Shown here in pieces: positions 3,518-22,896 of a stretch of DNA of 64,000 nucleotides (position 1 is the stretch's first letter; every line of letters begins with the position of its first letter). Under the pieces are notes generated by a model. That model was not told the DNA's origin. It made no database searches and saw nothing but the letters and a program-made list of their open reading frames with translations. Made by a program: the position numbers and the translations under genes. Origin of the DNA: Candidatus Latescibacterota bacterium (GTDB lineage Bacteria > Latescibacterota > UBA2968); assembly GCA_965208125.1 (NCBI GenBank), contig OZ242320.1:544001-608000 (forward strand), in the 5' to 3' direction.

Positions 3518-4069
3518 TCATGCATCCATCTGCGTGGATGCACTGTGAGATAGCCCATCTAACGTCTTAGAAGCTGTCTTAAAATTCGGTCTTATAATAG
3601 ACGCAATCTCTTCCGCCCGTTCCCATGATACGGTCACCTTCTGCTTCAAACCCCCATCTTTTGGCTGTAAGGCAGCGATATGCGGAGGTCCACTCCCCCA
3701 GTTGCTCGACTTTCGCCGAGGTACAACATGCATGTGAAAATGCGGCACCTCCTGCAAACTGGCCACGCCATTATTCTGATAGACCGTAATCCCATCCGGG
3801 TTGAAAGTTTTAACAAGCGCTTCCGCTGCTATACGGACCGTCTTCATAATTTCGCCAGCCTCATCATCCGTCAAATCCAATATCGTCGGCGCATGGCGGC
3901 GAGGAACAACGAGAAGCTGACCGATTTCAAACTGCCTGGGATTGAGCAACGCAAGCGTCTTTTCAGTCGCATGGATAACATGCCTTTTTTCACCGCGTCC
4001 GGCAACTATTTCACAAAATGGACAGGGATCCCACGTCGGCATCTCAAATGAGGCAACAGTATCACTCAT
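3518..4069 (-). CDS. HIT family nucleotide hydrolase
   Basis: CPFC, NNG..S.Q.VPHFHMHVVPR histidine triad. Confidence 0.92.
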   Translation of the reverse strand: MSDTVASFEMPTWDPCPFCEIVAGRGEKRHVIHATEKTLALLNPRQFEIGQLLVVPRRHAPTILDLTDDEAGEIMKTVRIAAEALVKTFNPDGITVYQNNGVASLQEVPHFHMHVVPRRKSSNWGSGPPHIAALQPKDGGLKQKVTVSWERAEEIASIIRPNFKTASKTLDGLSHSASTQMDA

Positions 4070-4983
4070 CTTTCATCCTCATCTCGTCCGCTTTGATTCA
4101 GTCTCCCCCAGTGCTTTTGTCGCACCAATGGCATCCAGCCAAACCGATTGTAGAACCTTCCCGCGCCTGCTTCTTCGTCCTCCCGTGCAACGGAAAGCAC
4201 CACCCTGTCGCACTTAGCCAGCCGCAACCATTCAACAGCGTGACGGACAACCCACGAACCGACTCTCTGATTTCGCATAGATTTGATCGTCTCAACCTCC
4301 GAAAGCTCCGCCCATCCTGTCAATGCGGGCAACAGACCGCCTTCGGTGAGATCTGAAATACACTCACACTGCCCAACGTTTCGTCCATCGAGCCGAGCGA
4401 CAAATCGCGTACCGAATCTCCCCACATCGCGATGAATCGTCATACCTTTTACTGGCGGCTTACCAGGAGCAGAGATACCAGTCAGCGTGCCACCATAGAC
4501 GGATTCGTCAACATCCTCATTCGATGAATAACCAAATTGCTCCATCAGACCGATTATGTGTGGCCAAACATCCGGCACTCCTAAGCAAATTGGAACCGAT
4601 AGACCATTCCCCCAGATCTTCTCGTCCTTGACCTGCCAGGCATCCATTTGGCACCGGCACTCCTTCAGAACTGCCGCCCCAGCTTCACGCTCTCCTGGAC
4701 GGAACAAAAACCAGGCAATATCTCCAACACCCTTCCAGCGCGTGTCATCGCCGTATCGGAGGAGATGCGCCGCCGCGCAAACGCGATCGTTGACGATTCC
4801 AACAATGGACTTTCTTTCAACAACCCAGGGATCAACAATAGCCTCCTTCGGATTCCTCTTCAGGTGCTCCCAAAAGTAATCTGGCGTCAAGCTCCACCCG
4901 GGTATCACGGTACTGAGATGACTATTCACAAGATCCATGACCTGGGGCAGATGAAAACGATCAAGAGGTGCTATTTGTACCAT
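4066..4983 (-). CDS. GNAT family N-acetyltransferase (tandem domain)
   Basis: C-terminal RNQRVGS…FYNRFGW acetyl-CoA motif; ATG at 4983 preferred; ATGA overlap with HIT gene. Confidence 0.75.
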   Translation of the reverse strand: MVQIAPLDRFHLPQVMDLVNSHLSTVIPGWSLTPDYFWEHLKRNPKEAIVDPWVVERKSIVGIVNDRVCAAAHLLRYGDDTRWKGVGDIAWFLFRPGEREAGAAVLKECRCQMDAWQVKDEKIWGNGLSVPICLGVPDVWPHIIGLMEQFGYSSNEDVDESVYGGTLTGISAPGKPPVKGMTIHRDVGRFGTRFVARLDGRNVGQCECISDLTEGGLLPALTGWAELSEVETIKSMRNQRVGSWVVRHAVEWLRLAKCDRVVLSVAREDEEAGAGRFYNRFGWMPLVRQKHWGRLNQSGRDEDER

Positions 4984-5001
4984 GCGTAATCCCAAAACGT
5001 T

Positions 5002-5721
5002 TTATGTATTATGAGGGCTATGGAAGTCTAACAAAGCATCTATGTACGCACCAGCGGATTTACGCAAGCGTTCAAACCGCTCTTTGGAAATAGGCCCCTG
5101 ATCTTCTTTGACACACAAATCTGATATAATGCGAATACCGACATATTTGATCTCGTTAATCGCACAAACATCCACAATAGCCGCTGACTCCCAATTCACA
5201 GCTATGGCACCACTCTCTACGGCGATTCTATCTCGCACCTCGCGGTCATAGATATCCATATCTCCGCAAATCACGGAAGATTTCCTGACCGTAGCGCCCG
5301 AATTATTTTTTGATAGACACATTGCGAACCTGTCTATCGAAGCGGAAGAGGCATCGAAGAGGCATCCTCTCCATTCATCTTGCTCGCTCTGAATCTCTGG
5401 CCTATTTGGTACATCGTGCTCAGAAACACCAGTGATTACGACAATGTCTCCAATACGTAAAAAATCTACCAGACCACCCGCAAATCCAAACTCGAAAAAT
5501 GTATCTACCTTATACTTGTCTATGATCATCTGACACATCGAAGCCGCTCGCACCTTGCCCATCCCCGACTGCATTATGACCCACTTCTCATCTCCATCGC
5601 ACCATGCAAACTGCAACCTGCCATTCCAGTCAACCGAATCGCTCGCATCATGTCCCAGAACATCGAGAAGCGCCCGCGTCTCATCTGCGTAAGCTGTCAT
5701 AACGCACAGCTTTGAACTCAT
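5002..5721 (-). CDS. MTA/SAH nucleosidase-like protein (PNP_UDP_1 fold)
   Basis: SGMGKVRAA, GFAGGL, GDIVV, NWESAAI, RIISD. Confidence 0.8.
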   Translation of the reverse strand: MSSKLCVMTAYADETRALLDVLGHDASDSVDWNGRLQFAWCDGDEKWVIMQSGMGKVRAASMCQMIIDKYKVDTFFEFGFAGGLVDFLRIGDIVVITGVSEHDVPNRPEIQSEQDEWRGCLFDASSASIDRFAMCLSKNNSGATVRKSSVICGDMDIYDREVRDRIAVESGAIAVNWESAAIVDVCAINEIKYVGIRIISDLCVKEDQGPISKERFERLRKSAGAYIDALLDFHSPHNT

Positions 5722-5736
5722 AGATATATCTCCATT

Positions 5737-6210
5737 TCATCGCAATAATTTCTCAAAAGAAACAATAGTCATTCTCTCGTTAATCTCTCGAGTGCCTCCA
5801 GTTCTCCTATATCCCATTTTCTCATAAAAATAACAGTTGCCTTCCTCTTGCAGAATCGTCTCAAGCTCCCAGCACTCCGCATCAACAACGCCCTCAACAA
5901 GTGCCAGAGCATCCTGGCCATACCCCTTCCCCTGATGCTCTGGAATAATAAACATGGGACTAACTCTCGCTCGTCTCACCTCATCATCGTAGATAATTCT
6001 GATCGCTCCGATTTGCACACCATCGAGCATAATAAAGTAGTAAGTGGTATGGGGCTGCTTTAATCTGTCGATAACCCGTTCAACATCTTCATTGGCCGGA
6101 TTCGTATCGTAATCCCGATACTTATGGAGCAGTGGCAAAAATGACGCAACCTGAAGTCGGTGAATAGCTGCGGCATCTCTAATAGATGCTTTCTTTAAAC
6201 TGATTCGCAT
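5737..6210 (-). CDS. GNAT family N-acetyltransferase
   Basis: PEHQGKGYG, N..FYEKMGY; start at ATG 6210. Confidence 0.88.
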   Translation of the reverse strand: MRISLKKASIRDAAAIHRLQVASFLPLLHKYRDYDTNPANEDVERVIDRLKQPHTTYYFIMLDGVQIGAIRIIYDDEVRRARVSPMFIIPEHQGKGYGQDALALVEGVVDAECWELETILQEEGNCYFYEKMGYRRTGGTREINERMTIVSFEKLLR

Positions 6211-6214
6211 AAGT

Positions 6215-6766
6215 TCACCTATTTTTCCGCGCCTCCCATTCATCACGCAATAAACCACACCATACCATGTTTTTAAATTCGCCTCTTAGATAGATATCCT
6301 GGCGCAGGACACCTTCACGGACCATTCCGAGCTTCTCCATTACCCGGAGAGAACCGACATTTCTCTCATCGGCTGCAGCGCGAATGCGATTCAAATCTGG
6401 ATAGGCTGAAAACGATTCGTCGATAACAGCACCCGCGGCTTCCGTAGTCAGTCCTTTTCCCCAAAAGCGTCGGGCAATGCTATAGCCCATTTCGCCAACG
6501 CGATTATCAAAATCAAATCCAATATTAATCCCACCAATAACAGAACCAGCGTGTTCAATCGCCCAGGATATGCGTGTTTTGCGATCCTGCAACAGTTGAC
6601 CTGCCACAAATTTTTCGGCATCTGCTCTCGTGTAGGGTTGGGGAACCGGGAGAAAGCGCGCCCATTCCGGATCGGATGCGTATGACAGAACATCCTCAAC
6701 ATCCACAAGGCTAAACACCCTGAGTATCAATCGGTCTGTTTTAATAAGTTCCGACAGCATTTTCAT
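6215..6766 (-). CDS. GNAT acetyltransferase, RimJ/RimL type
   Basis: TDRLILR, EMGY….FWGKG, N.GS.RVMEKLGM..EG. Confidence 0.92.
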   Translation of the reverse strand: MKMLSELIKTDRLILRVFSLVDVEDVLSYASDPEWARFLPVPQPYTRADAEKFVAGQLLQDRKTRISWAIEHAGSVIGGINIGFDFDNRVGEMGYSIARRFWGKGLTTEAAGAVIDESFSAYPDLNRIRAAADERNVGSLRVMEKLGMVREGVLRQDIYLRGEFKNMVWCGLLRDEWEARKNR

Positions 6767-6780: not shown

Positions 6781-7401
6781 TCAGAGCACATCCTCATTTA
6801 ACCACCTGAGAAAACTCTCGTCATTGGTGTATTGATAGGCAAAACCACCACAACCTCTGAACAACTCAGGCTCCTTGCTGCCATCTTCGATTAAGAGACT
6901 ATTTCCATAGTGAATATCATCCCCCAGAGCTTCAAATGCAATGGGCCAGAGTGCGCGCTTGTCGATTTCTCCGTAATCGGAAGAATTGATAATCACATCA
7001 AATTTCTCGTCCAATCCATGCTCTGGAACAACGACATCTGAAAAAACATCCATATTGGCAGTTACAATCGCTGTTCGTCTCCCTTGACTTCTCTGCGTCA
7101 GTGCGAAATTCAAAACTACCTCATTAAAGTCAAGATCCTTGCATCCCAACTCCATAGTTTCCAAAACCGCAGAAATATCCATATTTGCGTGATCGGAGAC
7201 AATGGCCGCAATATCTCTAAGACTCAAGGCATTCGTCATCCACATCCTGCAGATATGCCGATTGGCGAACACATGCTCTTGAATAATATCATGCCACTCG
7301 GGACATTCTGGCGGGGATACCTTGAAATAGAGATCCGAAGACAACGTAAAACCGAAATCGAAAACAATGCACTTGAACTTGCTCAGATCACCGACCTTCA
7401 T
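6781..7401 (-). CDS. HAD-like hydrolase
   Basis: IVFDFGFTL motif I (degenerate), IVTAN, LLIED. Confidence 0.65.
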   Translation of the reverse strand: MKVGDLSKFKCIVFDFGFTLSSDLYFKVSPPECPEWHDIIQEHVFANRHICRMWMTNALSLRDIAAIVSDHANMDISAVLETMELGCKDLDFNEVVLNFALTQRSQGRRTAIVTANMDVFSDVVVPEHGLDEKFDVIINSSDYGEIDKRALWPIAFEALGDDIHYGNSLLIEDGSKEPELFRGCGGFAYQYTNDESFLRWLNEDVL

Positions 7402-7416: not shown

Positions 7417-7478
7417 GACTGAACTCCTGGGATAGCCTCGAAATAGTGAAGGCATCACTCTACAAATAGGGATTCAAT
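7417..7478. repeat. 62-bp direct repeat, copy 1 (last 8 codons of APH plus downstream spacer and RBS)
   Basis: 60/62 identical to 11582-11643. Confidence 0.95.
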
Positions 7479-8300
7479 AGCTCTGACAACACCAGGTACG
7501 TACTGCTCAAAGCCGTAATTCAGAGCAAAGAAGACAACAAAAAAGAGCTTTCGCTTTGACTCATAATCCACCCTCGTCCAGAAGTTCTCCCCCAACGGCA
7601 ATTGGTAGTGTTCAACCATATCCTCGGCAAACTGCTTCCCGAACCTGCGGTAAAATATTGCGAAATCAGCAGCCGGATCGCTGAGACTCAAATCGCCGAA
7701 ATCAATCACCCCAACAATCTTCGAGTGTGCCTCATCAATCAGGACATTGTTGGTACCAAAATCCGAATGAGCAATGACGTTCTGATATGTGGCAGACGCG
7801 ACTTTTGGTATTGCTCGTTGGAAGTAGTCTTCGGCTTTCTCCCGAGTATGGCCTCGCAGGAGCGGAGACACGGCAGGCCATAATTCCCGCCAAAAATCTT
7901 TACCCCCAAATGGAGCAACCTTGATATGCTGGTGTTCGAATGCAACGGCGTGAAGGCAAGACAGAAAATTACCCAAAGCTTCTGCCGTGGATTTTCTCTC
8001 CTTCTGATCGAGATTCTGAAATATCGCCTCAGAAAACTTGACCCCCTCTATCTTTTCATAAGCTATGTAGTTGTTACCCGAGTACTGTATTTCCGGGATC
8101 TGTAAAGGTGAGTCTTTCTGGAAAAGGGGTAGAAAAGCCTGTTCAACAGCAAGCTGAGTATTTGATAGATCTCGAACAAAACGGAATATCCACTTCGCAT
8201 TTACTTCCAAAACCACATTCGTCCAGCCTTCATCCAACTGAATAATGGATTCTACAGGCTCAGTTAGCGCATTCCGAACAATTGATTCGTACGTCTGCAT
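7455..8300 (-). CDS. Aminoglycoside phosphotransferase family protein (APH(2'')-like fold)
   Basis: EGWTN.V..V…WIFRF, HSDFGTNNVL, GVIDFGD….DPA.DF. Confidence 0.88.
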   Translation of the reverse strand: MQTYESIVRNALTEPVESIIQLDEGWTNVVLEVNAKWIFRFVRDLSNTQLAVEQAFLPLFQKDSPLQIPEIQYSGNNYIAYEKIEGVKFSEAIFQNLDQKERKSTAEALGNFLSCLHAVAFEHQHIKVAPFGGKDFWRELWPAVSPLLRGHTREKAEDYFQRAIPKVASATYQNVIAHSDFGTNNVLIDEAHSKIVGVIDFGDLSLSDPAADFAIFYRRFGKQFAEDMVEHYQLPLGENFWTRVDYESKRKLFFVVFFALNYGFEQYVPGVVRAIESLFVE

Positions 8301-8530
8301 GCGATTTAGCTGAAATACGCGTAATCCCCAAGTCCTTCAGGCTTGGGATGTAACGCGCTAAAATTTCTGGGGCGGTGCTTTAGCCTGGGGCATATCGCGA
8401 ATATGCGATATGGGTGGTGAATCAACCAGACTATTCGAATAATTCTACATGACAATATGCTATGTATTTGTTAGATTTAACCTATACAACCTAACACAAG
8501 GGGTTGATCGTGAAGTTGAAAAGTCCTGAC

Positions 8531-8923
8531 ATGAAATATCACACCTCGCACAGTGCAGTTTTCAGTTGCCATTATCATGTTGTCTGGTGTACCAAATATC
8601 GACGCCAAGTGCTGTCTGTTGACATGCAAACCCGACTGAAAGACTTATTGCTTGAGAAGCAGTGCGAATATGGCTATGAAGTGCAAGGTTGTGAAATCTT
8701 GTCTGATCATGTTCATTTGCTTCTTTCTGTTACGCCGTCAAAGCCAGTGAGTAGTGTTGTAGGCAGGCTCAAAAGCTATACGGCTCATATTCTGCGGTCT
8801 GAATATCCAGAACTTAAAAGCAGATTGCCGTCTTTGTGGACGCGGAGTAAGTTTGTAGCAACCGCTGGCGAAGTGACGCTTGGAGTTCTGAAACGCTACG
8901 TTGAAAATCAAAAGGGCGTATAG
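8531..8923 (+). CDS. tnpA: Y1 HUH transposase TnpA
   Basis: YHVVWCTKYRR, DHVHLL (HUH), LWTRS, RYVENQ catalytic Tyr. Confidence 0.95.
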   Translation: MKYHTSHSAVFSCHYHVVWCTKYRRQVLSVDMQTRLKDLLLEKQCEYGYEVQGCEILSDHVHLLLSVTPSKPVSSVVGRLKSYTAHILRSEYPELKSRLPSLWTRSKFVATAGEVTLGVLKRYVENQKGV

Positions 8924-10029
8924 TGGACTATATAACTTACAAATTCAAGCTGTATTCGGCGTGTGACCGAAATCGGTATCTGCACTATGAGATAGACGCC
9001 TTTGCTGGCGTGTATAACCACTTCATTGCTTTGATTAAGCGATACTATCAGCGATACAGCAAGTATCCGAACAAGTATGCACTGAAGAGGCATCTGACAA
9101 AACTAAAAAAAACTAAGCGATTTGGTCATTGGAGTGCGCTACCGTCTCAGGCATTGCAAGATGTGGTATTTCGCATAGATTTTGGCTACCAGAAGTTCTT
9201 TGCCAGAGACAACAAGCGACCGCCCACTTTCAGATCACGCTTCCGGTATCAGTCCTATACCCTGACGCAAGCAGGATACAAATTCCTTGAGCGTAACAAA
9301 GTGCGTATCGGCAAGCGTATATTTCGCTATCACAAAAGCAGAAACTTCGATGTAGAAAGTATCAAGACGGTCACAATCAAGCGTGACCGTGTAGGCGACT
9401 TGTGGCTATGTGTTGTTGCAAAGGCTGAAGGTATCAAGTCATTCATTGTCAAGAACGGTAAAACCGCAGGCTTTGACTTCGGCTTGAAAACCTACCTGAC
9501 GGCCTCAGACGCCACACGAACACAATCGCCTTTGTTCTTTTCTCGCAACGCCAGACAGGCCAAAAAAGCCAACCGCAATCTGTCACGTAAGCAGAAGAGT
9601 AGCAACAACCGTCATAGAGCAAGAGTGAACCTTGCCAGAGTGCATCGGCGCGTAGCGAATCAGCGCAGGGACTATCACTGGCAACTTGCCCATCAACTGT
9701 GCAAAGACTATGATGTAATGTGCTTTGAAACGCTGAACATCAAAGCCATGCAACAGTTGTGGGGCAAAAAGATTAACGATCTGGGATTCTCGAACTTCTT
9801 GGTCACCCTCAAATATGTCGCACAAAAGACAGGCAAAACAGTTCGGCAAATTGACCAGTGGCTACCCACGTCTAAGACTTGCTCCGCATGTGGCACTGTC
9901 AAAGAAAATCTTGAATTGCGAGAAAGAACATTTCATTGTTGCGAATGTGGTCTTGAAATAGATAGAGATCTCAACGCAGCGATAAACATTCACAGGTGGG
10001 GGCGTCCGCCTATGGCGGAGGCAGCGTAA
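8923..10029 (+). CDS. tnpB: RNA-guided endonuclease TnpB
   Basis: RuvC I GFDFGLK, RuvC II FETLNI, zinc finger TSKTCSACG…CCECG, RuvC III DRDLNAAINI; D-E-D intact. Confidence 0.95.
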   Translation: MDYITYKFKLYSACDRNRYLHYEIDAFAGVYNHFIALIKRYYQRYSKYPNKYALKRHLTKLKKTKRFGHWSALPSQALQDVVFRIDFGYQKFFARDNKRPPTFRSRFRYQSYTLTQAGYKFLERNKVRIGKRIFRYHKSRNFDVESIKTVTIKRDRVGDLWLCVVAKAEGIKSFIVKNGKTAGFDFGLKTYLTASDATRTQSPLFFSRNARQAKKANRNLSRKQKSSNNRHRARVNLARVHRRVANQRRDYHWQLAHQLCKDYDVMCFETLNIKAMQQLWGKKINDLGFSNFLVTLKYVAQKTGKTVRQIDQWLPTSKTCSACGTVKENLELRERTFHCCECGLEIDRDLNAAINIHRWGRPPMAEAA

Positions 10030-10142
10030 GACCAGACTTGCATAGCTGGCTACTGCCGTTGATACCACAATCCCTGCTGAAGCAAAGAGAATCCCAATGC
10101 TTCAGCTTTGGGAGTATGTCAATCTCTCCACTTATCGCGCGG
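9990..10142 (+). ncRNA. Predicted TnpB omegaRNA/reRNA (scaffold plus flank-derived guide)
   Basis: Known architecture: reRNA overlaps the tnpB 3' end and right end, guide taken from the right flank; 5' boundary approximate. Confidence 0.6.
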
Positions 10143-10853
10143 ATGGGCCCGGAAGTTGAATTCTCCTCTATTGAGCGTCTCATCAAATTGAACAAGAGCC
10201 TTGATTACCTTTTTGCGGGCATCTGCCATAAACGGATTCAGCAATTGCGTCTCTCTGTATGTGGAAGGCGAGTTCGTTTTCAGGTGTTCAATCAATTGCA
10301 GGAGAAACCTGCCTGCTCCAGATGGCAACTTCTCGCGCTCTTCCTCCGGTAGATAGAGTTCAAGAGCCATCCCAATAAAATGCGCCATACCAGGACCTGT
10401 TCTGCGATCTTCATCTTCTGCAGTCCTGGGAATCAGCTTACAACCCATACGCTTCAGGCATGCTGATATCTCGGGATCCGCTTTTCCAAATAGGGATATA
10501 TTGCCTGGACCAAGATGCGATAGTCCAAACCTCTCTCGATTCAATATTGATAGTTCCTTATCTGCAGCAAGTCGTGCTGTGCAACAATCAATCACAACGC
10601 AATCAGATTTGGCATGCTCATTGATCTTCGGAACCCATTTGCCAAGTGCCCAAACGGGAATAGCCAGAAAAATAACATCTGCCCCGGAAAGACTTTCAGT
10701 ATTGTTGCTTGACTGCCGCACTCCAACATCGACCAGTTCAGAGCTTATATCGCGACTCGAAATAACCTCGACCTGAAATCGATCCGCGAATGCATTTACT
10801 GCCTGCTTTCCCATTCTGCCGAAACCGATTATGCAAAGTCTCTTACTTGCCAT
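10119..10853 (-). CDS. Prephenate/arogenate dehydrogenase-like NAD(P)-binding protein
   Basis: IIGFGRMG Rossmann motif, ADVIFLAIP, VIDCC. Confidence 0.65.
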   Translation of the reverse strand: MASKRLCIIGFGRMGKQAVNAFADRFQVEVISSRDISSELVDVGVRQSSNNTESLSGADVIFLAIPVWALGKWVPKINEHAKSDCVVIDCCTARLAADKELSILNRERFGLSHLGPGNISLFGKADPEISACLKRMGCKLIPRTAEDEDRRTGPGMAHFIGMALELYLPEEEREKLPSGAGRFLLQLIEHLKTNSPSTYRETQLLNPFMADARKKVIKALVQFDETLNRGEFNFRAHPRDKWRD

Positions 10854-11581: not shown

Positions 11582-11643
11582 GACTAAACTCTTGGGATAG
11601 CCTCGAAATAGTGAAGGCATCACTCTACAAATAGGGATTCAAT
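11582..11643. repeat. 62-bp direct repeat, copy 2 (orphan APH 3' stub IESLFVE* plus spacer)
   Basis: 60/62 identical to 7417-7478. Confidence 0.95.
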
Positions 11644-11709
11644 TTTCAGTCTCCAACTTGATTCCATACATTGGCTGCATACATTAAGCCTATTTCGGGA
11701 CTACGAAGA

Positions 11710-11750: not shown

Positions 11751-11801
11751 ATATTGAAAAATATATCTACGATACAGGAACCAAAAATGGCGTGGGCTGG
11801 T

Positions 11802-13536: not shown

Positions 13537-15633
13537 TCACCCCTTGAGATATTGATTGAACCAGTTGAACACGCTTTCGTAATGATCCCTGGTATTCTCA
13601 GCCGACCAATTAGCAGGAACATGGCCCTCGCGTTGATATTCTCGCATTTCCACTCGTTTGCCAAGTCGCCTGAGACCGAGGAATGTCTCCCGTGCATTCA
13701 CCGATCCAGGTACATCTTTGGTTCCGCATATAACCAACACCGGCGCTTCGACCTGGTCGAAAGCAAAGATCGGCGAGTTCTCAATATACGCATCTCGTTT
13801 CTCCCAGAGACTGCCACCATTTCGCGCTTGCTTCCCCTCGCACCACCCTATTCTTGCTACATCTATAAGATAGGTACTGGTCATGTTGATTCCGAACGGC
13901 GCATTGGCAACCGCAGCGCGAAAAGCCCGTGTTTGCGTAACCAATGCCATCACACCATAAGCACCATAGCTGTGACCCCAAATACCGATTCGATTTTTGT
14001 CGGCAAAACCCATTTCTATGGCACGATTAACAGCAGGTAGTGTTACACCCACAATCTGCTCAATTGGATTATTGTCCTCCATAATCGAATCTGGATATAG
14101 TGCAGCATAACCGGCACTGGTGAGTAACCGCGCTTCCGAAGCATACCTATCGCGCCTTGAAAAATGACTCCCAGGATAGATAGTGACAACCATGGGGAGC
14201 TGGTCTCCCGCCCGAGTGTCTCTGGGAAGAAAAAGAGCCGCCTTCTGTACACGACCATTCGCGTCCTTAAACTCTATAACTTTGCGCACCGGTTGTTCCA
14301 CATCCTGTCGCCAGGGATTGGTCTTAAGTAGTGTAGTGGACTCTCCACCGTCGAGAGGGTATGCATGTACCGCCTCTCTGCCGCGAGCAAAAACGAAATG
14401 TTTGGATGCTATTAGAGTGAACTCATCAGGACTTGAAAGTGGCGCAGGACAAACCGTAGTTGTCTCGCCGGAAACAGAGTGAATGCGGACGATATATTTC
14501 AAGTTATCGCGTTTGTCAATTGCGTGGGCAAGAATATTGCCCTGATCGTCAGTACGAAGAACTGAATCACCGTACCGTTGCGCAATCACATTTATCCTCA
14601 TCTGAGTTGAATCCTTTAACAGCCGACGAATCTTACCGTCCTCAATAGAAAGATGATACAAACATCCTTTTTGGAGCCAAATCAGGCGCGTACCATCCTC
14701 GGTCCACCAGGGTATTTGAAAGTTACCCAGAGACGAAGTGAATTCTGCTACCCTTATAGGCCCAGTTGATCCGTCCGCCGGTGCGAAGTAGAGATGTTGA
14801 GGGTCACCCCACTTTCCACCGGTGACATAGGCAATTGTCTGACAATCGGGGGACCACGAGAAACGACAGGCATAACTGTTGACCGGTACTTCCCGAGCGA
14901 TCACATAAGACTCGCGACCATCAAGTGGGACAACAGTCACATCGGCAATAGTGTGGGGGCGATCCACCGGGTATGCAATTTGATTGAGAAGTGCGACAGC
15001 TTGCCCATCAGGAGCCATAGCCATACGCTGGGTATTGAATGTGTGACCAGACGCTAACTCTGTTACAATGCCTGAGCTTATCTCCACAACACCGACACAC
15101 TTATCAGTATCGGACAATTCAAAGACTGATCTATGCTGGTCTGATGCGGGCTGTTCCGGAGTGTATGATTGCACAATGATGTCAGGAGATTTTTTAGAAA
15201 CACGGGCATTCGGAATCAAAGGCACGATGATGCGGTGACCGTCAGGAGTCCATTGAGGAATGGTGCGCCACACGCGGATCACGGCGTTGGATACGAGGAA
15301 TACTTCGCGCGTCTGTCTGTTCCACAATCCAACACAGGCATGAGCATCTTGTGTCACGACACAGGCGGCAAGTATTTGTCCGTCTGGAGACCATTGGCCT
15401 GCCCAACTCATTCGCAGATCAGAAAACGGCTCTATGGACTCACCTGTTTCAACATCTATAAGGACAATGTATGCGCCGTTCACTTCACCATAATTGGCAT
15501 CGTCAGGCACGCGACGCTTCCCCCGGCTGAGTGTTACAGCAAGCAATCCGCCATCAGGCGAAAGATCCCACGGACAACGACTGGTAAACTGATTGACATT
15601 CAATAAGTCATCAACAGTGAATGCTCGCGACAT
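13537..15633 (-). CDS. S9 family peptidase (beta-propeller plus prolyl oligopeptidase domain)
   Basis: Repeated WSPDG, GIWGHSYG nucleophile, G.KD, EGH. Confidence 0.92.
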   Translation of the reverse strand: MSRAFTVDDLLNVNQFTSRCPWDLSPDGGLLAVTLSRGKRRVPDDANYGEVNGAYIVLIDVETGESIEPFSDLRMSWAGQWSPDGQILAACVVTQDAHACVGLWNRQTREVFLVSNAVIRVWRTIPQWTPDGHRIIVPLIPNARVSKKSPDIIVQSYTPEQPASDQHRSVFELSDTDKCVGVVEISSGIVTELASGHTFNTQRMAMAPDGQAVALLNQIAYPVDRPHTIADVTVVPLDGRESYVIAREVPVNSYACRFSWSPDCQTIAYVTGGKWGDPQHLYFAPADGSTGPIRVAEFTSSLGNFQIPWWTEDGTRLIWLQKGCLYHLSIEDGKIRRLLKDSTQMRINVIAQRYGDSVLRTDDQGNILAHAIDKRDNLKYIVRIHSVSGETTTVCPAPLSSPDEFTLIASKHFVFARGREAVHAYPLDGGESTTLLKTNPWRQDVEQPVRKVIEFKDANGRVQKAALFLPRDTRAGDQLPMVVTIYPGSHFSRRDRYASEARLLTSAGYAALYPDSIMEDNNPIEQIVGVTLPAVNRAIEMGFADKNRIGIWGHSYGAYGVMALVTQTRAFRAAVANAPFGINMTSTYLIDVARIGWCEGKQARNGGSLWEKRDAYIENSPIFAFDQVEAPVLVICGTKDVPGSVNARETFLGLRRLGKRVEMREYQREGHVPANWSAENTRDHYESVFNWFNQYLKG

Positions 15634-15700: not shown

Positions 15701-16435
15701 CTATGCCACAGCATCTCTGAATATCCCCGCTGTGGTCGATATAACCTCATCCCAAAGCCTGCGCCCCAACTCGGCACTCGCTCTGGTCGCATCACCAATG
15801 ACACCAGTATCTGAGTATTTTGAGAAATCGAGATGCGGATCATTCCAATCCACTTCTCTTGAACTGGACGAAGGGATGTTCTCAAGTCTAACCGTAGCCG
15901 GGCGTCTATACATGGCAATCGAAGTCGTGAAACTATCGGCATGACCACCTGGAACGCTGGGATCAGATACCCGGCACCAAATGTCGTGATATGGCAAGGA
16001 TGGAAGACAAGCCTTGCATCTTAGATGGAACTTCGCGTTGAATCTATTCACCGCCTCCTGAAGTCGATGCTCACCGCAGCCGCGCCAGACAACAACAGTC
16101 CCAAAGCCCTGTTCTGCCAGCGATTCAAGGACGAAATAGACATACGCTTCATGAACAACGTGCGGGATGTTGACATATCCCGAGCCAAAGCCCCGATGTT
16201 CGGGCGTGGGGCCAAACGGTATGGCTGGCAAAACCAGAGCACGCACATCGTGATAACGTGCCGCCTGCTGTGCAGCCTCCAGAGCAACGGCTTCCGCAAA
16301 CCATGTGTCGAAATCTACTGGCAAATGTGGACCCTGTTGCTCTGTGCATCCTGTGGGTACAATCGCCAGGCACCCAGCTTCTATAAGGTCCTTGATTTCT
16401 AAGTACGTATAATCAGTGAATTTATGAGAGTTCAT
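15701..16435 (-). CDS. Creatininase family amidohydrolase
   Basis: P.G.TEQQGPHLP..FD, EH..F.G, GGHAD.FTTS, GVIGD. Confidence 0.88.
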   Translation of the reverse strand: MNSHKFTDYTYLEIKDLIEAGCLAIVPTGCTEQQGPHLPVDFDTWFAEAVALEAAQQAARYHDVRALVLPAIPFGPTPEHRGFGSGYVNIPHVVHEAYVYFVLESLAEQGFGTVVVWRGCGEHRLQEAVNRFNAKFHLRCKACLPSLPYHDIWCRVSDPSVPGGHADSFTTSIAMYRRPATVRLENIPSSSSREVDWNDPHLDFSKYSDTGVIGDATRASAELGRRLWDEVISTTAGIFRDAVA

Positions 16436-16510
16436 TTTTTAGAGTTTTGATAGTCCTGAATGCTCCCCGTAGCGAGTTGTGCGGAGGCGCAAGCGCGACA
16501 CAACGAAAAC

Positions 16511-16539
16511 CGCTGTGTTACACAATGTGCAACACAGCG
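16511..16539. repeat. Near-perfect 29-bp palindrome
   Basis: CGCTGTGTTACACA-A-TGTGCAACACAGCG (14-bp arms, 1 mismatch). Confidence 0.85.
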
Positions 16540-16599: not shown

Positions 16600-16860
16600 T
16601 CAAGCGGCTGTGGTCTGTCTAATTTCCCAACCGGGAAAAACGAGAACAGCCGGATGGCACTGCAACGCCCGAGCGAGTACCTTGGCGCGCTCAACTCCAA
16701 GCTGGATGCGGTTATTTTCGATGGCTGAAATAGTTGATTGGGGAATGCCTGTGCGTCTGGCAAGCTCGTTTTGACTAAACTCCTGAAGTTCGCGGATAAT
16801 ACGGACGGACTCACCTACGGATACCTCAATCTGCTTCCTGGCACGACGGTAATTTTTCAT
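16600..16860 (-). CDS. HigA-like Xre/HTH antitoxin
   Basis: RIIRELQEFSQNELARRTGIPQSTISAIEN HTH; directly downstream of the toxin. Confidence 0.85.
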   Translation of the reverse strand: MKNYRRARKQIEVSVGESVRIIRELQEFSQNELARRTGIPQSTISAIENNRIQLGVERAKVLARALQCHPAVLVFPGWEIRQTTAA

Positions 16861-16861
16861 T

Positions 16862-17143
16862 TTACTGTCTCCGATAATCATGAGCGGTTAGACTTACAAC
16901 CTGCACGAGAACTCTGCTGGCTTCGGTTTTGTATATGACGCGGTAGTGGAGACCAAGCCGAGATGACCTGTGTCCTTGCCATTTTCCTCTCAGTGCTTCG
17001 TCATGAAATCCTTTGATAAGCCTCAAACCTTGAGGACCTGATATCATAACGATATCTTTCCATTTTTCGTAACGCTTGAGAATTTCCTGGGGCATAGATT
17101 TTATCTGCTTGCCCACCCTTCGATGCTCGAGAATAGTCCACAT
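16862..17143 (-). CDS. RelE/HigB/YoeB-superfamily mRNA interferase toxin
   Basis: HDEALRGKWQGHRSSRL..HYRVIY; toxin-first order. Confidence 0.82.
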   Translation of the reverse strand: MWTILEHRRVGKQIKSMPQEILKRYEKWKDIVMISGPQGLRLIKGFHDEALRGKWQGHRSSRLGLHYRVIYKTEASRVLVQVVSLTAHDYRRQ

Positions 17144-17178
17144 ACCATATAATATATAGATTATTTATGGTATGTCAA
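17141..17178 (-). promoter_or_regulatory. TA promoter with inverted-repeat operator
   Basis: TTGACA-16 nt-TATATT, 7 nt before ATG; IR CATACCATA (17141-17149)/TATGGTATG (17166-17174). Confidence 0.75.
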
Positions 17179-17238: not shown

Positions 17239-17682
17239 TTACATCTTTCCTTCGTTGATCAAATCGATCGCAGAAGGTCCTGTTTGCACCTTGTAATATG
17301 TCCTTGCCCTGTCCGCGAAGTAATCCTTAATGCGCTCGACCTGCTTGGGGGACGTGTTGCTCGGGATACGATCTAAATGAAAATACTCAATCTGATCCGC
17401 CTCATCGGTAAGCTGGATTGTACCCCCTGTAACCTGGCAGAAAAATGACAACACGACCTCATTTTTATCTGGTTTACTATACACCCCACTGAGATGGACG
17501 GGCACAGCTTTCAAACCCGTTTCTTCTTCTATCTCTCGCACCAGAGCAGCCCACGGACTCTCGCCTGCCTCAACGCCCCCACCGGGCAAATTCCACAAAT
17601 CGAAGTCGCGTCGGTGGCACAGCAAGACGCGGTCTTTATCATCGGTAATAATTCCAAAAACGCCGATTGTAAACACAATCAA
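17239..17682 (-). CDS. NUDIX hydrolase
   Basis: LPGGGVEAGESPWAALVREIEEETG Nudix box; TTG start overlapping upstream TGA. Confidence 0.92.
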   Translation of the reverse strand: MIVFTIGVFGIITDDKDRVLLCHRRDFDLWNLPGGGVEAGESPWAALVREIEEETGLKAVPVHLSGVYSKPDKNEVVLSFFCQVTGGTIQLTDEADQIEYFHLDRIPSNTSPKQVERIKDYFADRARTYYKVQTGPSAIDLINEGKM

Positions 17683-18224
17683 ATTTCCTTTTTGATATAT
17701 CGAACATATCCCAACTCGGCTTCGGAGATACCCAATCCATCCAGTTCACCTATTGGGACAAATGTCGCTTCCTCTTCATAGTCATCGGCGCACATTAAAC
17801 CTGGCACATATTTGGAAGCGCAGGCAGTGTAAACGATTTGAAAAAAGTGAGGATATGGGAACTGGAATCCAGGCGACTTCGGCTTGAGATGTTTCAGATG
17901 GATGAACCCCAGACGTGAGATAGATTCAATCGTCCAGCCTGTCTCCTCTGCAACTTCGCGGCGAAGTGTTTGTTCGAAAGTCTCGCCCTCTTCGCGACGA
18001 CCACCCGGCAAAATGTGGTTGCCCTTGCGATTCCTGAGTCCCAGAACAGAATCATGCTGAAAAACGAGACATCGAACAGAAGTTACAAACTCCTCTGGCG
18101 GCTGTTCATCGGAACAAAAATAACGCACGCGCAAAGGCATCGTCCCATCTGCCCACAGAGCTTCTGTCTCGTGAAAAGGAGTCTTACCCTTCAAAAATAT
18201 CTGTAAGTCTTCGTTATGATTCAA
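17679..18224 (-). CDS. NUDIX hydrolase
   Basis: LPGGRREEGETFEQTLRREVAEETG; start probably TTG 18224 (track start lies inside dcd). Confidence 0.85.
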   Translation of the reverse strand: MNHNEDLQIFLKGKTPFHETEALWADGTMPLRVRYFCSDEQPPEEFVTSVRCLVFQHDSVLGLRNRKGNHILPGGRREEGETFEQTLRREVAEETGWTIESISRLGFIHLKHLKPKSPGFQFPYPHFFQIVYTACASKYVPGLMCADDYEEEATFVPIGELDGLGISEAELGYVRYIKKEI

Positions 18225-18753
18225 TTCTATCCATACCTTTAAAATCGAGATACAAACGACTGGATTGAATACCCGTGTTATTTTGATACTTTCCACTTTT
18301 GTAGGTCTCGAAATCGCCATCCAGCGTATGGTAGTAAATCTGGCAGATTTCCACATTTGGATAGATCCGGATGGGTCGAATACAGAACATTTCCAAAGTC
18401 CAGTAGCCCGCGAAGCCCACATCGCCAAAACCTGCGGTTATGTGTACAAACAGCCCCAATCTGCCCACAGATGACCGCCCCTCAAGCATGGGAACATAAT
18501 TATTCGTTCTGGTAAATTCAACTGTCCTGCCAAGATAGAGCGTTTGGGGTTGCATCTCGTACCCATCATCCGGAATCTGAATAGATCGCGTGCGATTTTT
18601 CTTCTTCATATCGAGAACGCCATCCTCATATATCATGAGTTCATTGGCGAGTGAAAGATTATAGCTATTGGGGTTGAGCCTGGCGGGATCAAACGGTTGA
18701 ATAATAATGTCTTTTCCCATTCGCTCGTGAATCATTTTTCCCGATAAAATCAT
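18214..18753 (-). CDS. dcd: dCTP deaminase (trimeric dUTPase fold)
   Basis: MILS, NPNSYNL.L, EGRSSVGRLG..VH.TAG..D.GF.G..TLE, GKYQ. Confidence 0.9.
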   Translation of the reverse strand: MILSGKMIHERMGKDIIIQPFDPARLNPNSYNLSLANELMIYEDGVLDMKKKNRTRSIQIPDDGYEMQPQTLYLGRTVEFTRTNNYVPMLEGRSSVGRLGLFVHITAGFGDVGFAGYWTLEMFCIRPIRIYPNVEICQIYYHTLDGDFETYKSGKYQNNTGIQSSRLYLDFKGMDRIES

Positions 18754-18767: not shown

Positions 18768-19250
18768 CTATTCTACTTCAGGTAAATCTCTATACATGAT
18801 ATGCATATAATCTGTAAACCCATGTTTTCTCCAGAATGAATATCCAACGGTATTCATAGAAGCCACTCGCAGTTCAACTCTGTCTATTCTCAGAGATCGA
18901 AACCAATTCAACATCTCTTTTAGCATCAACTCTCCAATTCCTTTTCTCCTGTGTTCAGAAGAAACAGCCAAATCTTGAATAGTGCCACAGATTTGCTTGA
19001 TGAATACGGGAGGATATTTGTCAATCTTTGCTGTTCCGTAGCCCAATACCTTTGTATTCTCAACCGCTATAACCACGAGAGCATCCTCTGCCGAGATCAG
19101 TCTTGCCAGATTCTCACCCATGCTTTCTTCTGCACCCTCAGACAGAGTATATCTGGAATCAAACGGGACATGAAAATCCATGAGTTCTTTCCAGATCTCC
19201 AGTATAGCGGGTATATCAGATTTGTGAGCAGTAACAACTTCCATTTTCAT
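18768..19250 (-). CDS. GNAT family N-acetyltransferase
   Basis: LAV..EHRRKGIG, N..GYSFWRKHGF. Confidence 0.88.
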   Translation of the reverse strand: MKMEVVTAHKSDIPAILEIWKELMDFHVPFDSRYTLSEGAEESMGENLARLISAEDALVVIAVENTKVLGYGTAKIDKYPPVFIKQICGTIQDLAVSSEHRRKGIGELMLKEMLNWFRSLRIDRVELRVASMNTVGYSFWRKHGFTDYMHIMYRDLPEVE

Positions 19251-20076
19251 CCTCTCCAATATACGATGCGTCATTGACCACCTGACTATATACTGCTGTT
19301 TTTGAAACCTCCGAAATTACGAAATCGAGAAAATCTATAGCCTCCTGTCTCGCGTCCAATTCAATACCGTATTTCCACGCCAGAGCTCTGCCTACCAAAT
19401 CACGCCACCTTTCTCCATAATCCTCCCGCACCCATGACGCAGCCATCTTCTTCGAGCCAACAACGGAGCAAATCACAGTATGCAGTATTCGACACAGATT
19501 CAGAATGAAATACGCTTCATGGTGGCTATCCCTAAACCACTCCGGAGTGAATTTTTTCGGTGCCCATTCCTGAAACAAATCTCGAACGCAGGCATTTCGC
19601 ACATCCTCAACATCAACCGGAGACAATAACTTCTTAAAACTCGGACCAAATAGCGCGATGGAATGGCTATAAAGAAAATATTTGTTGATTATCCATTCAT
19701 TCCCATAAGGTGCCTCTTCATAAAGAGTACAATCACCACCCCAGTACCACGGTCGAGGCTCCGTTGGAGGCATAACACATGGGAGCATATCAACAGGCGT
19801 ATAAGAACACTCTAACCGCCGCGCCCATTTCTCGAATTTTTCTTCTATCTCTCTGTGTAAACGTCCAATTGAATCGAGTTCACTTCGAGAAACAGGTCGA
19901 TGCACAATCACTGTAATATCAATATCACTGCTATGGTAGTTAAACGCCCCATGGGACAACGAGCCGGTCAGATATATCCCGAGTACATTTTCTCCGAGAG
20001 CAGGAAAAACGCTTTTAACGAAAAAATCTATAATCTCGTTCACATCGGGATATTTCGTAAGATTGCTTGCAGTCAT
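19216..20076 (-). CDS. Aminoglycoside adenylyltransferase-like nucleotidyltransferase (AadA/DUF4111-type)
   Basis: GIYLTGSL..G.F….SDID NTase motif; YFILNLCR..T…SKK.AA.W. Confidence 0.78.
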   Translation of the reverse strand: MTASNLTKYPDVNEIIDFFVKSVFPALGENVLGIYLTGSLSHGAFNYHSSDIDITVIVHRPVSRSELDSIGRLHREIEEKFEKWARRLECSYTPVDMLPCVMPPTEPRPWYWGGDCTLYEEAPYGNEWIINKYFLYSHSIALFGPSFKKLLSPVDVEDVRNACVRDLFQEWAPKKFTPEWFRDSHHEAYFILNLCRILHTVICSVVGSKKMAASWVREDYGERWRDLVGRALAWKYGIELDARQEAIDFLDFVISEVSKTAVYSQVVNDASYIGEDENGSCYCSQI

Positions 20077-20137
20077 CGTCCTATCGTACGGAGAAATTAC
20101 TTGAATCATTCGGAACAGTTGATTGTTTCCATCTATA

Positions 20138-20683
20138 CTATAACTTGCGCTTCATGAACACCGCAACTTCACCATCGACATCACTATTGGTATAATAGGA
20201 CAGATCGACACCATCGACTTCAAAACCTACGCTGTGATAGAAATCAATGGCTGGCACATTGGTATTTTGAGTCTCACAAACCAAAATTCTCAGCCCTTCA
20301 GCTTTGGCGGCTTCCGCTATCTTCTCCATCAATTGCCTGCCAACACCCTTTCTCCTGTATGACTCGTCAACTCCAAATTCCCTGATCCATAGGCTCCTAT
20401 TCCACTCTATTTCTTCCGAAATTGCGATACCCACAAGTTGTTCAGCATCGTAGGCTCCCAGCGACAGACCACAATTGACAAGTTTGCTGTAGATCCTGAA
20501 ATCCTCTTTTGAGAACGACCAGTGTTTCACATAGGGTTCATCCAATTTTTGACGCTTAAAAATAAAACAGAACTCATCAGCGGTCTCAGTCTTAGACACC
20601 TGGTACCTATCATTTGAAACATACCCATCCATTATATATAGATCCTCGCGCCGTAGCTGCTCCAATTTTCTGATTTCGACCAT
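20138..20683 (-). CDS. Streptothricin-acetyltransferase-like GNAT
   Basis: PYVK, YRRKGVG, ETQNTNVPAIDFY..GF..GVD..YY, terminal E.A.F. Confidence 0.75.
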   Translation of the reverse strand: MVEIRKLEQLRREDLYIMDGYVSNDRYQVSKTETADEFCFIFKRQKLDEPYVKHWSFSKEDFRIYSKLVNCGLSLGAYDAEQLVGIAISEEIEWNRSLWIREFGVDESYRRKGVGRQLMEKIAEAAKAEGLRILVCETQNTNVPAIDFYHSVGFEVDGVDLSYYTNSDVDGEVAVFMKRKL

Positions 20684-20717: not shown

Positions 20718-21536
20718 TTATCTATTCTCTTCCAGCCAACCGACCGCGAAATCCACAACATCTCGTTGTGGCATGATCTGGCAACGCGCGAGACCAACCT
20801 TGCCGTGACGCACCACTTTCCCTGCATCTGACCGCAAAAAATCCTCACCGATGCGATCAAAATCCGAACTATCCAGCTCAACATCTTCAAAGGTAGCCCA
20901 TGTTCTTGAACCCGACTCAGAGATCGGTGCGCCCTCTTGCACAATGCGCCTGGTAGAAAAACTCGCCCGATATTCCGCAAGGTGCATAGACGTATTATTT
21001 CCGTGACCCACACCGAGAAGAAGGACAAAACCGTGCAAATCGTAGATTCTCGCAAGCGGTGAATGCTCGCCCATGCCAAAAGACAGTGAATGATCATCCA
21101 CGACATACGATGCTTGAGGTCCACAGGCACAAAATGAGTCCAGCGGATGTGAACTACGCAGAACCCCTCTCTGCTTGCGGAACGTCTCCGCAATAATACC
21201 CATAGCACGAGTTGGCGTAAGTGCCGGATCGTAAGCCGGCATAGTCTCGCGTATCACCGACCACCACGACCTGGGAACAGGGGGACTCTCCCACTTGCTC
21301 GGCTCACTCAGACCAGATGAGTGCGCGGGCATCACAAGCGTTCCAGTAGATCCCAGAACTTTCTGAAGCGCAATAACAACCGCCACGGCTCCTCCACACA
21401 CCCATCCCATCGCACTCAAAGACGAATGCACCAACACGACCATCCCCGGTCTAACGCCAAGCGCGCGAAGATCTGTCTGCAACGATTCAATCGTAGCGGG
21501 CATTTCTGTTTTTTCAACAACCTTGTCTTCACTCAT
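20718..21536 (-). CDS. AAC(3)/YokD family aminoglycoside N3-acetyltransferase
   Basis: VHSSLSAMGWVCGG, GTLVMPAH, RSSHP..SF, LLLGVGH.NNTSMHLAE. Confidence 0.92.
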   Translation of the reverse strand: MSEDKVVEKTEMPATIESLQTDLRALGVRPGMVVLVHSSLSAMGWVCGGAVAVVIALQKVLGSTGTLVMPAHSSGLSEPSKWESPPVPRSWWSVIRETMPAYDPALTPTRAMGIIAETFRKQRGVLRSSHPLDSFCACGPQASYVVDDHSLSFGMGEHSPLARIYDLHGFVLLLGVGHGNNTSMHLAEYRASFSTRRIVQEGAPISESGSRTWATFEDVELDSSDFDRIGEDFLRSDAGKVVRHGKVGLARCQIMPQRDVVDFAVGWLEENR

Positions 21537-21557
21537 TATTTTTTCCCACTGCACCAC

Positions 21558-21902
21558 CTATTTCGCTGCAATCACGACCATCTCCACAAGTGTATCTCCC
21601 TCCAATTTGACCTCCACACAGGCGCGCTGGGGCCAATTGTCGGCACCAATCCAAGCGTCCCAAACCGCATTGAGGACGGGTTTCTTTGACATATCTGTGA
21701 TATAGATCGTGACGGAAAGAAGACAAGACTTATCGGTTCCAGCCTCGGCGAGATTCGCATCCAACTGTTCGAGCGCCTGTTGAGTCTGACCCTTGAGATC
21801 TGTGGACACATCCGGTGCGGTGACAACTGTATAGACGATGCCATTGTGTTCAACGGACTTACTGCGACCAAATGCCTTTCCCGGATAGCGGTTGATGGCC
21901 AT
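21558..21902 (-). CDS. RidA/YoaB family protein
   Basis: QTQQAL..LD..LAEAGTDK, NAVWDAW…PQRACVE, LVEM.V.A. Confidence 0.9.
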   Translation of the reverse strand: MAINRYPGKAFGRSKSVEHNGIVYTVVTAPDVSTDLKGQTQQALEQLDANLAEAGTDKSCLLSVTIYITDMSKKPVLNAVWDAWIGADNWPQRACVEVKLEGDTLVEMVVIAAK

Positions 21903-21938
21903 AAATGCTCCAATGGATAGCGGTTTTACAACATAAAT

Positions 21939-21979
21939 TTTACTGATCTTGTGACAATTCTATCCACAAGATAGTTTCT
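21939..21979. repeat. 41-bp conserved intergenic module, copy A
   Basis: 32/41 ungapped identity to 11710-11750; + strand ATG follows after a 36-nt gap (22016). Confidence 0.7.
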
Positions 21980-22155
21980 GTGATGCACACGATAAGTTTT
22001 TTGGGAAGGACCAGGATGACTGGCGATAACGGTCTGCGGATTGCCGAACCTGACCGAAAGATAAGAGAAAGGTTGAGTGGGCTGAGTAAGGAAAGGATTG
22101 GGAATGGGTGTATTACATCTCCTTCTGGTGTGTAAGACCAGTCTCTTTCTCGTTT

Positions 22156-22896
22156 TTATTTTCGGCAAATGATAAAGTGTTCCATCCACAAATGCCAGAT
22201 ATAATCTACAGATCGAAAACCCGCCTCTTTTAGCCATTCAACCTGAAAAGAAAAACGAGATATCCGATCTCTCTCAGGACTGTCTTCATCTACCTGCTCA
22301 ATAATCTCACGCACCCGATTCGCCTCTTCAATATCAATCCCAGCTTCTTCGAACCTCTCTCCTCGGCGGAAATTGAGCCGCCTTCGCCCCAACTTATAAA
22401 CCTCGTCGTCAAAGCGCGTGGACATGGCATCGATCAAAAAGAACCAACCACCTGTCTCAAGCACATCGTAAATCTGCCTGAATATGCGGGCCTTATTCTC
22501 ATCTGTAAGATGATGGATAGTCGAAAACGATGCAACAAACTGAAAAGATCCCAAACCTTCTGGCAGCCCCTCATTGAGATCTTTCTGAAGAAACGCTACG
22601 CGATCTGAATGCGTGCCCATCTTCCGAGCCGCAAATCTCATCATCTCATCTGAAAAATCGATAGCCACACACGTTGCTTTTGGATATTTCATCAAAACAC
22701 AATTGAGAAATATACCCGTTCCGCATCCCAAATCGAGCATCCGAAATTCAGTCTGGTCATCAAACGGAATAAAATCCAGAGCCAGACTGTGATAAAATTC
22801 AAACATCTCAATCCGAATCGGCTGCAGGCGATCATAATCCTCAGCACGCGTTGAGAATTGAATACTTTGAGATTTCTGGATCTTTTGATTATCCAT
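22156..22896 (-). CDS. Class I SAM-dependent methyltransferase
   Basis: LDLGCGTG, IDFS..M, IHHL, L..GG. Confidence 0.9.
   Translation of the reverse strand: MDNQKIQKSQSIQFSTRAEDYDRLQPIRIEMFEFYHSLALDFIPFDDQTEFRMLDLGCGTGIFLNCVLMKYPKATCVAIDFSDEMMRFAARKMGTHSDRVAFLQKDLNEGLPEGLGSFQFVASFSTIHHLTDENKARIFRQIYDVLETGGWFFLIDAMSTRFDDEVYKLGRRRLNFRRGERFEEAGIDIEEANRVREIIEQVDEDSPERDRISRFSFQVEWLKEAGFRSVDYIWHLWMEHFIICRK

Follow-up and report, generated by a model that had tools for sequence, protein, structure and literature searches.

Integron splitting by rearrangement is a proposed origin of arrays that lack an integrase, the attC-site clusters that have no integron-integrase (CALINs; Cury et al. 2016, PMC4889954). 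The same origins are given in PMC8618304, where Latescibacterota is missing from the phylum list. In Xanthomonas, arrays are described as stable after loss of intI (bioRxiv 10.1101/2025.06.18.660453), and the extra domain of IntI has been termed necessary for integron recombination (bioRxiv 10.1101/2022.02.06.479319). Additive flexible genomic islands are defined in PMC4898812. Here we describe a locus in a 64,000-nucleotide stretch of a Candidatus Latescibacterota genome (contig OZ242320.1, positions 544,001 to 608,000; hereafter the window), in which 24 minus-strand genes and one insertion sequence (IS) of the IS200/IS605 type (tnpA and tnpB, plus strand) occupy positions 3518-22896 directly upstream of hflX.

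In our view, with a probability of about 0.78, this array represents the distal, most ancient part of an integron-like array, chromosomal and sedentary, which an inversion parted from its integrase and which then eroded. Its history, as read from the sequence, would be as follows. The array would have grown in the genus ancestor between a UVR-motif gene and hflX, its builder being a short tyrosine recombinase without the IntI-specific domain, pointing towards its cassettes; to judge from its sequence, this enzyme would have used an attI-like site for the insertion of attC cassettes. Later, in the common ancestor of 17 species that form a clade (G000, the genome holding the window, and 16 congeners; other G numbers denote relatives), an inversion with breakpoints inside the array region and between the genes for a GMC oxidoreductase and a Gfo/Idh/MocA protein would have left 17-31 kb beside hflX and carried the integrase end to another place. 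Without access to attI, the part at hflX would have shed almost all of its attC sites and spacers through repeated deletion. It is now an inherited, operon-like block under purifying selection, which varies because genes are lost, because it holds old duplicates and, probably, because species exchange homologous segments. As it has no attI and no foldable attC, the integrase presumably cannot shuffle these genes.

The split is recorded in two ancestral gene pairs. We compared 21 genomes of the genus (G000 and 20 congeners) and a class-wide set of 132. The UVR-motif gene, which encodes a protein of 249 aa and lies upstream of the recombinase, is no more than 304 bp from hflX in all 19 outgroup genomes holding both and no more than 1.9 kb away in three of the four basal congeners (G016, G010 and G018), compared with none of the 17 clade members; in the clade the two genes are at least 0.78 Mb apart in all 11 genomes that carry both on one contig. 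The GMC and Gfo/Idh/MocA genes are adjacent in 17 of 17 outgroups holding both and at most 2.9 kb apart in all four basal congeners. In the clade the GMC gene heads a block that ends at hflX, 16.6-31.3 kb upstream of it (13/13 single-contig genomes), and the Gfo gene ends a block that starts at the UVR-motif gene, 151-305 kb downstream in nine of 11 single-contig genomes; in G015 and G019 the latter block has been rearranged further. The flanks are cross-joined, and since the second pair is also broken, the most consistent cause is one inversion that split the region. Gene order and strands in G009 and G014 are exactly as one inversion gives, and the other genomes need a later one.

The UVR-to-Gfo block of G000 measures 293 kb; of its 267 called genes, 216 share one strand, and its orthologues contain attI-like sites. 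We note that G000:C1:4076000-4368900 is mostly minus-strand and that its attC cassettes are interspersed with genes of the sulfatase, PhyH and oxidoreductase types; weak traces of attC occur at 4087038 and 4139724, and the domain is collinear, with deletions, in G009 and G014.

Intact arrays are found at the other half of the broken junction. Intergenic self-comparison of G000 brought out attC hairpins at 4.33-4.37 Mb; they lie downstream of a tyrosine recombinase with the same orientation (G000:4368012-4368842), 3.8 Mb from the window; recombinase, attI-like site and intact attCs come straight after the UVR-motif gene. The best PDB match of this candidate is VchIntIA (2A3V), with some 42 residues missing at the IntI-specific (I2) region, and its TIGR02249 score of 196.9 bits is under the cut-off for IntI (265 bits). 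The search for intI suggested in a first-pass annotation of this DNA therefore finds no canonical intI in G000 and would miss the candidate enzyme, while the same annotation was right that the window holds no tyrosine recombinase (none of the genome's five PF00589 matches falls there). The G000 recombinase has lost about 129 N-terminal residues in frame relative to that of G005. Close full or near-full copies are present in two of the 21 genus genomes; canonical IntI over the cut-off was found in one of 41 genomes and in no member of the genus, and when metagenomes were scanned with the full-length integrase, no relative came up.

The attI-like motif is conserved and ends in GTT, and the cassettes that come after it differ from genome to genome. 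For 48 cassettes with an attC site on either side, the first box of the downstream site matches the cassette's own 5' end at 3.40 of 4 variable bases, compared with a mean of 1.96 and a maximum of 2.35 after shuffling, a signature of circle insertion at G|TT. Cassette ends in the UVR-gene array carry both halves of one attC, as in integrons. Taken together, the sequences suggest that the short recombinase performs cassette insertion at the attI-like site. A literature search, limited mainly to non-subscription journals, gave nothing on integrases without the IntI-specific domain or on integrons in Latescibacterota.

Several other loci carry related elements. A further low-GC co-oriented array (G000:C1:2510820-2547461), which is possibly another detached piece, contains a 75%-identical copy of the RidA gene with the same leader, element E. 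An identical IS with split transposase occurs in three copies (G000:C1:4365258-4366130, 2547819-2548689 and 5254823-5255772), one of them at the GTT end of an attC. G036 has six near-identical copies, in six places, of a relative of the recombinase (49-51% identity), perhaps a mobile element; G026:C1:1722408-1723166 belongs to the same observation. Large attC arrays, spread over several clusters, are seen in G029 (0.97, 3.45, 4.17 and 5.30 Mb) and G039 (1.41 and 4.7 Mb), which have no canonical IntI.

At the hflX locus itself there is no intact repeated attC, as had been noted from the sequence at the outset, but two eroded remnants do exist. We identified them with an attC profile (nhmmer) and a covariance model trained on 21 intact sites, none taken from the hflX array. 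Both are intergenic and on the correct strand. Remnant 1 scores above the nhmmer control maximum of 10.1 bits, and remnant 2 is the top covariance-model match in the 64 kb (16.9 bits, E=0.029; 21.9 bits for an orthologue). All five attC model matches in five congener loci land on the sites of remnant 1 or 2, and native control DNA (100 kb) gave a single match of 11.4 bits; none of 20 loci has an attC remnant upstream of 24 kb. The fold of remnant 2 gives z=-1.2 with unpaired ends and remnant 1 is truncated; two of three intact attCs gave z=-3.1 and -6.4, and the third -1.6. Remnant 2 of G019 terminates in the motif GTT-N6-AAT. Fused directly to remnant 1 in six of 16 congener arrays is a 48-61-nt scrap from the 3' end of the integrase gene, to which it is 75-81% identical (E 8e-9 to 2e-4). 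The right arm of a terminator-like hairpin (13 pairs and a T run, 16511-16539) is formed by the first bases of remnant 1; this hairpin may end the toxin-antitoxin transcript, which would explain the survival of this attC half. In G001, outside the clade, a 28-nt match to the integrase upstream region (L020:1915-1942) and a short HIT fragment lie just before hflX. Of the two options that the first-pass annotation had offered, the eroded integron array is thus backed by the attC remnants, by the scrap of integrase that congeners carry and by the reciprocal breakpoints that tie the array to an attC array elsewhere.

Relatives of the array genes also occur as cassettes. In other genera of the order, attC-flanked cassettes resemble array genes (methyltransferase, 59% identity; helix-turn-helix (HTH) antitoxin, 63%; HIT, 40%). 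Close relatives of the HIT protein are found in only 17 of the 132 class genomes, and a protein named from Poribacteria matches it at 80% identity; this rarity and this match argue that it was horizontally acquired. An 87%-identical orthologue of a congener-array antitoxin is placed between the UVR-motif gene and hflX in G018.

The alternative that survives best retains the same builder with another history: the inversion preceded the array, or the junctions received separate arrays, and a second copy of the integrase platform assembled the hflX array on the spot and then decayed. We consider this unlikely. A second platform would suit the position of the integrase scrap in mid-array, the recurrence of integrase fragments within the G025 and G039 arrays, and the presence of attI-like sites that lie far apart, three in G019 and two in G006. 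However, two of the three G019 sites and both of those in G006 map to the UVR-to-Gfo domain, and the two fragments before hflX in G001, as well as the array-type gene between the UVR-motif gene and hflX in G018, point to a platform that existed before the break. The third attI-like site of G019 (G019:C1:5693082) is in a region that matches G000 at 1.12 Mb and is unrelated to that domain.

Comparison across species, based on our own open reading frame and tblastn calls, shows an old and stable array. A related array is present at the same locus in 16 of 20 congeners, and the 17 array genomes form one clade with support of 99/99 (hflX) and 98/97 (UVR-motif gene). Gene order is concordant in 97.6% of gene-pair comparisons (6568/6732), with the conflicts concentrated on a few genes with traces of duplication, such as the APH gene behind a 62-bp repeat. 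Content is variable: no two of the 12 complete arrays are alike (the other five of the 17 are cut by contig or locus ends), with 8 to 25 genes and a mean Jaccard index of 0.46. Genes have been lost, often leaving fragments, and those that remain are under selection, the ratio of nonsynonymous to synonymous divergence (dN/dS) being 0.05-0.27 for the 26 array genes measured. Their dS of 0.16-0.42 is like that of hflX (0.31), and they were therefore already in the clade ancestor.

Not all of the variation is vertical. Gene trees conflict with that of hflX (a GNAT group with support 100/98 against hflX groups with 99/98 and 100/99), shared indel junctions cut across each other among the species, and the start of the desaturase gene is 99.4% identical to that of G015 over 333 bp, with neighbouring sequence at about 90%. 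The tree conflict and crossing junctions probably reflect homologous exchange between species. These observations, together with there being only two attC traces, would also suit an additive flexible genomic island that formed through homologous recombination and illegitimate insertion and carries the attC remnants and integrase scrap as passengers. We regard this as improbable, since it covers today's variation and not the origin of the site, which is one side of a broken junction that has an attC array on its other side. In the islands of PMC4898812 the number and order of shared cassettes are unrelated to phylogeny and copies are near-identical, whereas here order is conserved, dS is like that of core genes and near-identical segments are few.

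We also examined where indels begin and end, after dropping the IS site and merging three near-duplicate junctions (33 to 29). Of the 58 ends, 18 are within 15 nt of a gene end (6.9% expected) and 30 within 30 nt (12.6% expected). Microhomology at the junctions is short (mean 1.1 versus 0.68 nt), with at least 4 nt at four of 33 junctions, and we rejected microhomology-driven deletion as the main mode. Ends near gene ends with little microhomology are expected when repeated deletions stop at selected genes. The same two features could be taken as signs of an active, attC-independent system that moves genes together with their translation-initiation regions, the capture hotspot that was the other option of the first-pass annotation, but this is highly improbable and largely refuted by the conserved order. 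In addition, many losses leave truncated genes, the junctions have no repeat, divergence is as old as that of the core and a gene-precise indel is also found in the stable block (glnA, absent in G002). The conserved order and the hflX-like synonymous divergence are what that annotation had itself named as refuting it, and they count against a hotspot. On this sequence evidence we take the locus to be a fossil array under deletion and inter-species recombination.

Several points weigh against the history that we prefer. No genome keeps a long array intact between the UVR-motif gene and hflX, the searches in G016, G010 and G018 recovered none of the 24 genes of the window, and a small insert is also present between GMC and Gfo in the basal congeners. 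The host-like genes at 24-33 kb are not accounted for. Only two attC traces are left for 24 genes, and a cassette origin is not demonstrated gene by gene. Remnant 2 reaches only 10.0 bits with nhmmer, which is control level, and the covariance model misses remnant 1 in the window, where it overlaps the terminator-like hairpin. No attI-like motif occurs in the window or the hflX-side loci within five mismatches. Cassette relatives of the window's own genes are just 24-40% identical to them, a metagenome scan with HIT gave four loci with attC in none, and toxin-antitoxin remnants may hop independently. Finally, the 48 cassettes used for box matching include some common to G025 and G039.

The features of the window are as follows; fractions are of the 12 complete arrays unless stated, and assignments are by Pfam unless stated.
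2183-3478, minus: hflX, ancestral downstream neighbour of the UVR-motif gene and fixed distal anchor of the array.
3518-4069, minus: HIT protein, the most distal gene (12/12).
4066-4983, minus: GNAT acetyltransferase (3/12).
5002-5721, minus: PNP_UDP_1, MTAN-like (2/12).
5737-6258 (likely start 6210), minus: GNAT acetyltransferase (10/12).
6215-6766, minus: GNAT, Acetyltransf_3 (12/12).
6781-7401, minus: 206-aa protein, no Pfam or NCBIfam match (8/12).
7417-7478: 62-bp repeat, copy 1 (APH gene 3' end and spacer).
7455-8300, minus: APH-family phosphotransferase (2/12).
8310-10122, plus: IS200/IS605 element (tnpA 8504-8923, tnpB 8923-10029), a late insertion common to G003 and G015.
10119-10853, minus: prephenate-dehydrogenase-like (Pfam/NCBIfam).
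10888-11580, minus: PNP_UDP_1, MTAN-like.
11582-11643: 62-bp repeat, copy 2, the scar left by a second APH copy, which G002 retains whole at the same place.
11658-11776, minus: element E and a fragment of a deleted Asp/Glu-racemase-like gene; this leader recurs ahead of different genes in congener arrays.
11802-12824, minus: APH-family phosphotransferase.
12885-13325, minus: DoxX (12/12).
13537-15633, minus: S9 peptidase, 698 aa; in the integrase-proximal array of G000 a full-length relative with 27% identity comes after an intact attC.
15701-16435, minus: creatininase family.
16466-16523, minus: attC remnant 1, the 5' ~60% of a lineage-type site (nhmmer 13.6 bits, E=0.0036).
16600-17143, minus: HTH antitoxin (16600-16881) and RelE-type toxin (16862-17143) (Pfam/NCBIfam), with a sigma-70-like promoter at 17149-17178.
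17239-18224, minus: two NUDIX hydrolases.
18214-18753, minus: dCTP deaminase (Pfam/NCBIfam).
18768-19274, minus: GNAT acetyltransferase.
19216-20109, minus: nucleotidyltransferase with AadA_C domain (ANT-like), far under resistance-family cut-offs.
20138-20683, minus: GNAT acetyltransferase.
20718-21557, minus: AAC(3)-like N-acetyltransferase, under the NCBIfam cut-off.
21558-21902, minus: RidA family (12/12).
21913-21987, minus: element E, second, diverged copy (repeat search and congener comparison).
22024-22118, minus: attC remnant 2, full length with a GTT box at its end, end-to-end fold lost.
22156-22896, minus: S-adenosylmethionine-dependent methyltransferase.
22899-24077, minus: fatty-acid-desaturase-family gene, accessory (4/21 genus genomes).
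24022-33253, minus: host-like, stabler co-oriented block between array and breakpoint (FAD oxidoreductase, S9 peptidase, amidohydrolase, PhyH, PHO4-like, 487-aa protein, ankyrin, methyltransferase; GC 54.4%).
34734-36236, minus: GMC oxidoreductase, its 3' side the inversion breakpoint; the ancestral partner, the Gfo/Idh/MocA gene, is now at G000:4074683-4075639.

The first description of this region as a co-oriented array upstream of hflX, minus-strand except for the IS, agrees with these data, as does that of very short or overlapping junctions (18 of 24 are at most 67 bp or overlap). Most of the genes are small, as had been stated, with the exception of the 698-aa S9 peptidase. The families named were recovered (five GNAT, two NUDIX, two APH, two PNP_UDP_1, HIT, DoxX, RidA, a methyltransferase and the RelE/HTH pair) apart from HAD, assigned to 6781-7401, which has no family match; the AAC(3)-like, ANT-like, dCTP deaminase, creatininase, prephenate-dehydrogenase-like and S9 peptidase genes are additional. 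The array has a GC content of 47.4% compared with 51.2% genome-wide. The variable region also takes in the desaturase gene, and co-orientation continues to 33253. Co-orientation and leading-strand bias were rejected as evidence, as runs of at least 23 co-oriented genes number 16 in G000 (counted with a simple gene caller). The gap between the last array gene and hflX is 39 bp, making transcriptional read-through into hflX possible; the closest named relative of this hflX, 97% identical, is from Candidatus Latescibacterota.

A repeat search and self-BLAST found no regular repeat in the window, just the 62-bp duplicate, leader E and IS copies, and an Rfam scan gave no match near a gathering score. 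Predicted promoters and terminators are no richer than in shuffled sequence (26 versus 26.3 and 13 versus 17.8), and element E is therefore not established as a promoter. A plus-strand glutamine-synthetase-like gene (window 33377-34741), cleanly missing in G002, overlaps the GMC stop at the breakpoint. Four basal congeners have orthologues of the FAD oxidoreductase (24067-25350) with 84% identity, in each case at a position where the genes beside it in the window find no match, and single host genes seem to relocate within the genus. Contigs of two sponge metatranscriptome runs differ from the toxin-antitoxin pair at one position in 584 and 687 nt; contigs can neither show expression nor rank genes, and these were not used as evidence. 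Matches to one 9-mer with a period of about 680 bp at G000:C1:1691000-1706000 suggest a long tandem-repeat gene.

Both breakpoints of a probable integron split can be mapped here, and the later stage, with attC loss, spacer shrinkage, purifying selection and homologous exchange, is visible in 17 species, so that the fate of cassettes after the death of an integron becomes testable. On this reading, genes once captured can be stripped of the signals that made them mobile and end up as an ordinary inherited block. The locus also suggests that attC-based surveys undercount integron-derived genes. A larger claim is possible but doubtful: that a recombinase without the IntI-defining domain built a stacked, co-oriented domain of more than 300 kb between two once-adjacent genes (G000:4.369 to 4.076 Mb and window 3.5-33 kb), also drawing in host catabolic genes, and that a sizeable share of the accessory genome of this lineage is a fossil integron invisible to attC scanners.

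The array shares with CALINs from rearranged sedentary integrons (PMC4889954) cassettes parted by inversion or translocation from an integrase that lies elsewhere, with an IS inside; it is more decayed, with two non-folding remnants for 24 genes, and both of its reciprocal breakpoints can be located. With the Xanthomonas ilvD integrons with inactivated intI (bioRxiv 10.1101/2025.06.18.660453) it shares a fixed ancestral locus beside a core gene, loss of the integrase in most lineages, arrays that turn stable and distant CALINs at conserved loci; their arrays are counted by attC and have canonical IntI, whereas here hardly any attC is left and the enzyme has no IntI domain. Like additive flexible genomic islands (PMC4898812), the array is one locus with differing gene sets and exchange between species, but there is no tRNA target, the genes are as diverged as the core and variation is mostly loss. 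The recombinase resembles canonical IntI (VchIntIA) in its best PDB match, its attI-like site with a G|TT crossover and attC hairpins with box matching, and the inverted-integrase group in being co-oriented with its cassettes; it is shorter than canonical IntI at the IntI-specific region. Its position would tie a recombinase without the IntI domain to real cassette arrays, contrary to the view published in PMC4889954. No integrase lies beside the array in the window, no attI heads it and the candidate integrase has no I2 domain, as a complete integron would require. For a CALIN, defined as at least two attC sites clustered within 4 kb, the two remnants are 5.5 kb apart and do not fold into hairpins, although the co-oriented, unrelated cassette-type genes with a toxin-antitoxin pair are present. 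The window falls outside both classes, yet it works as the end stage of one.

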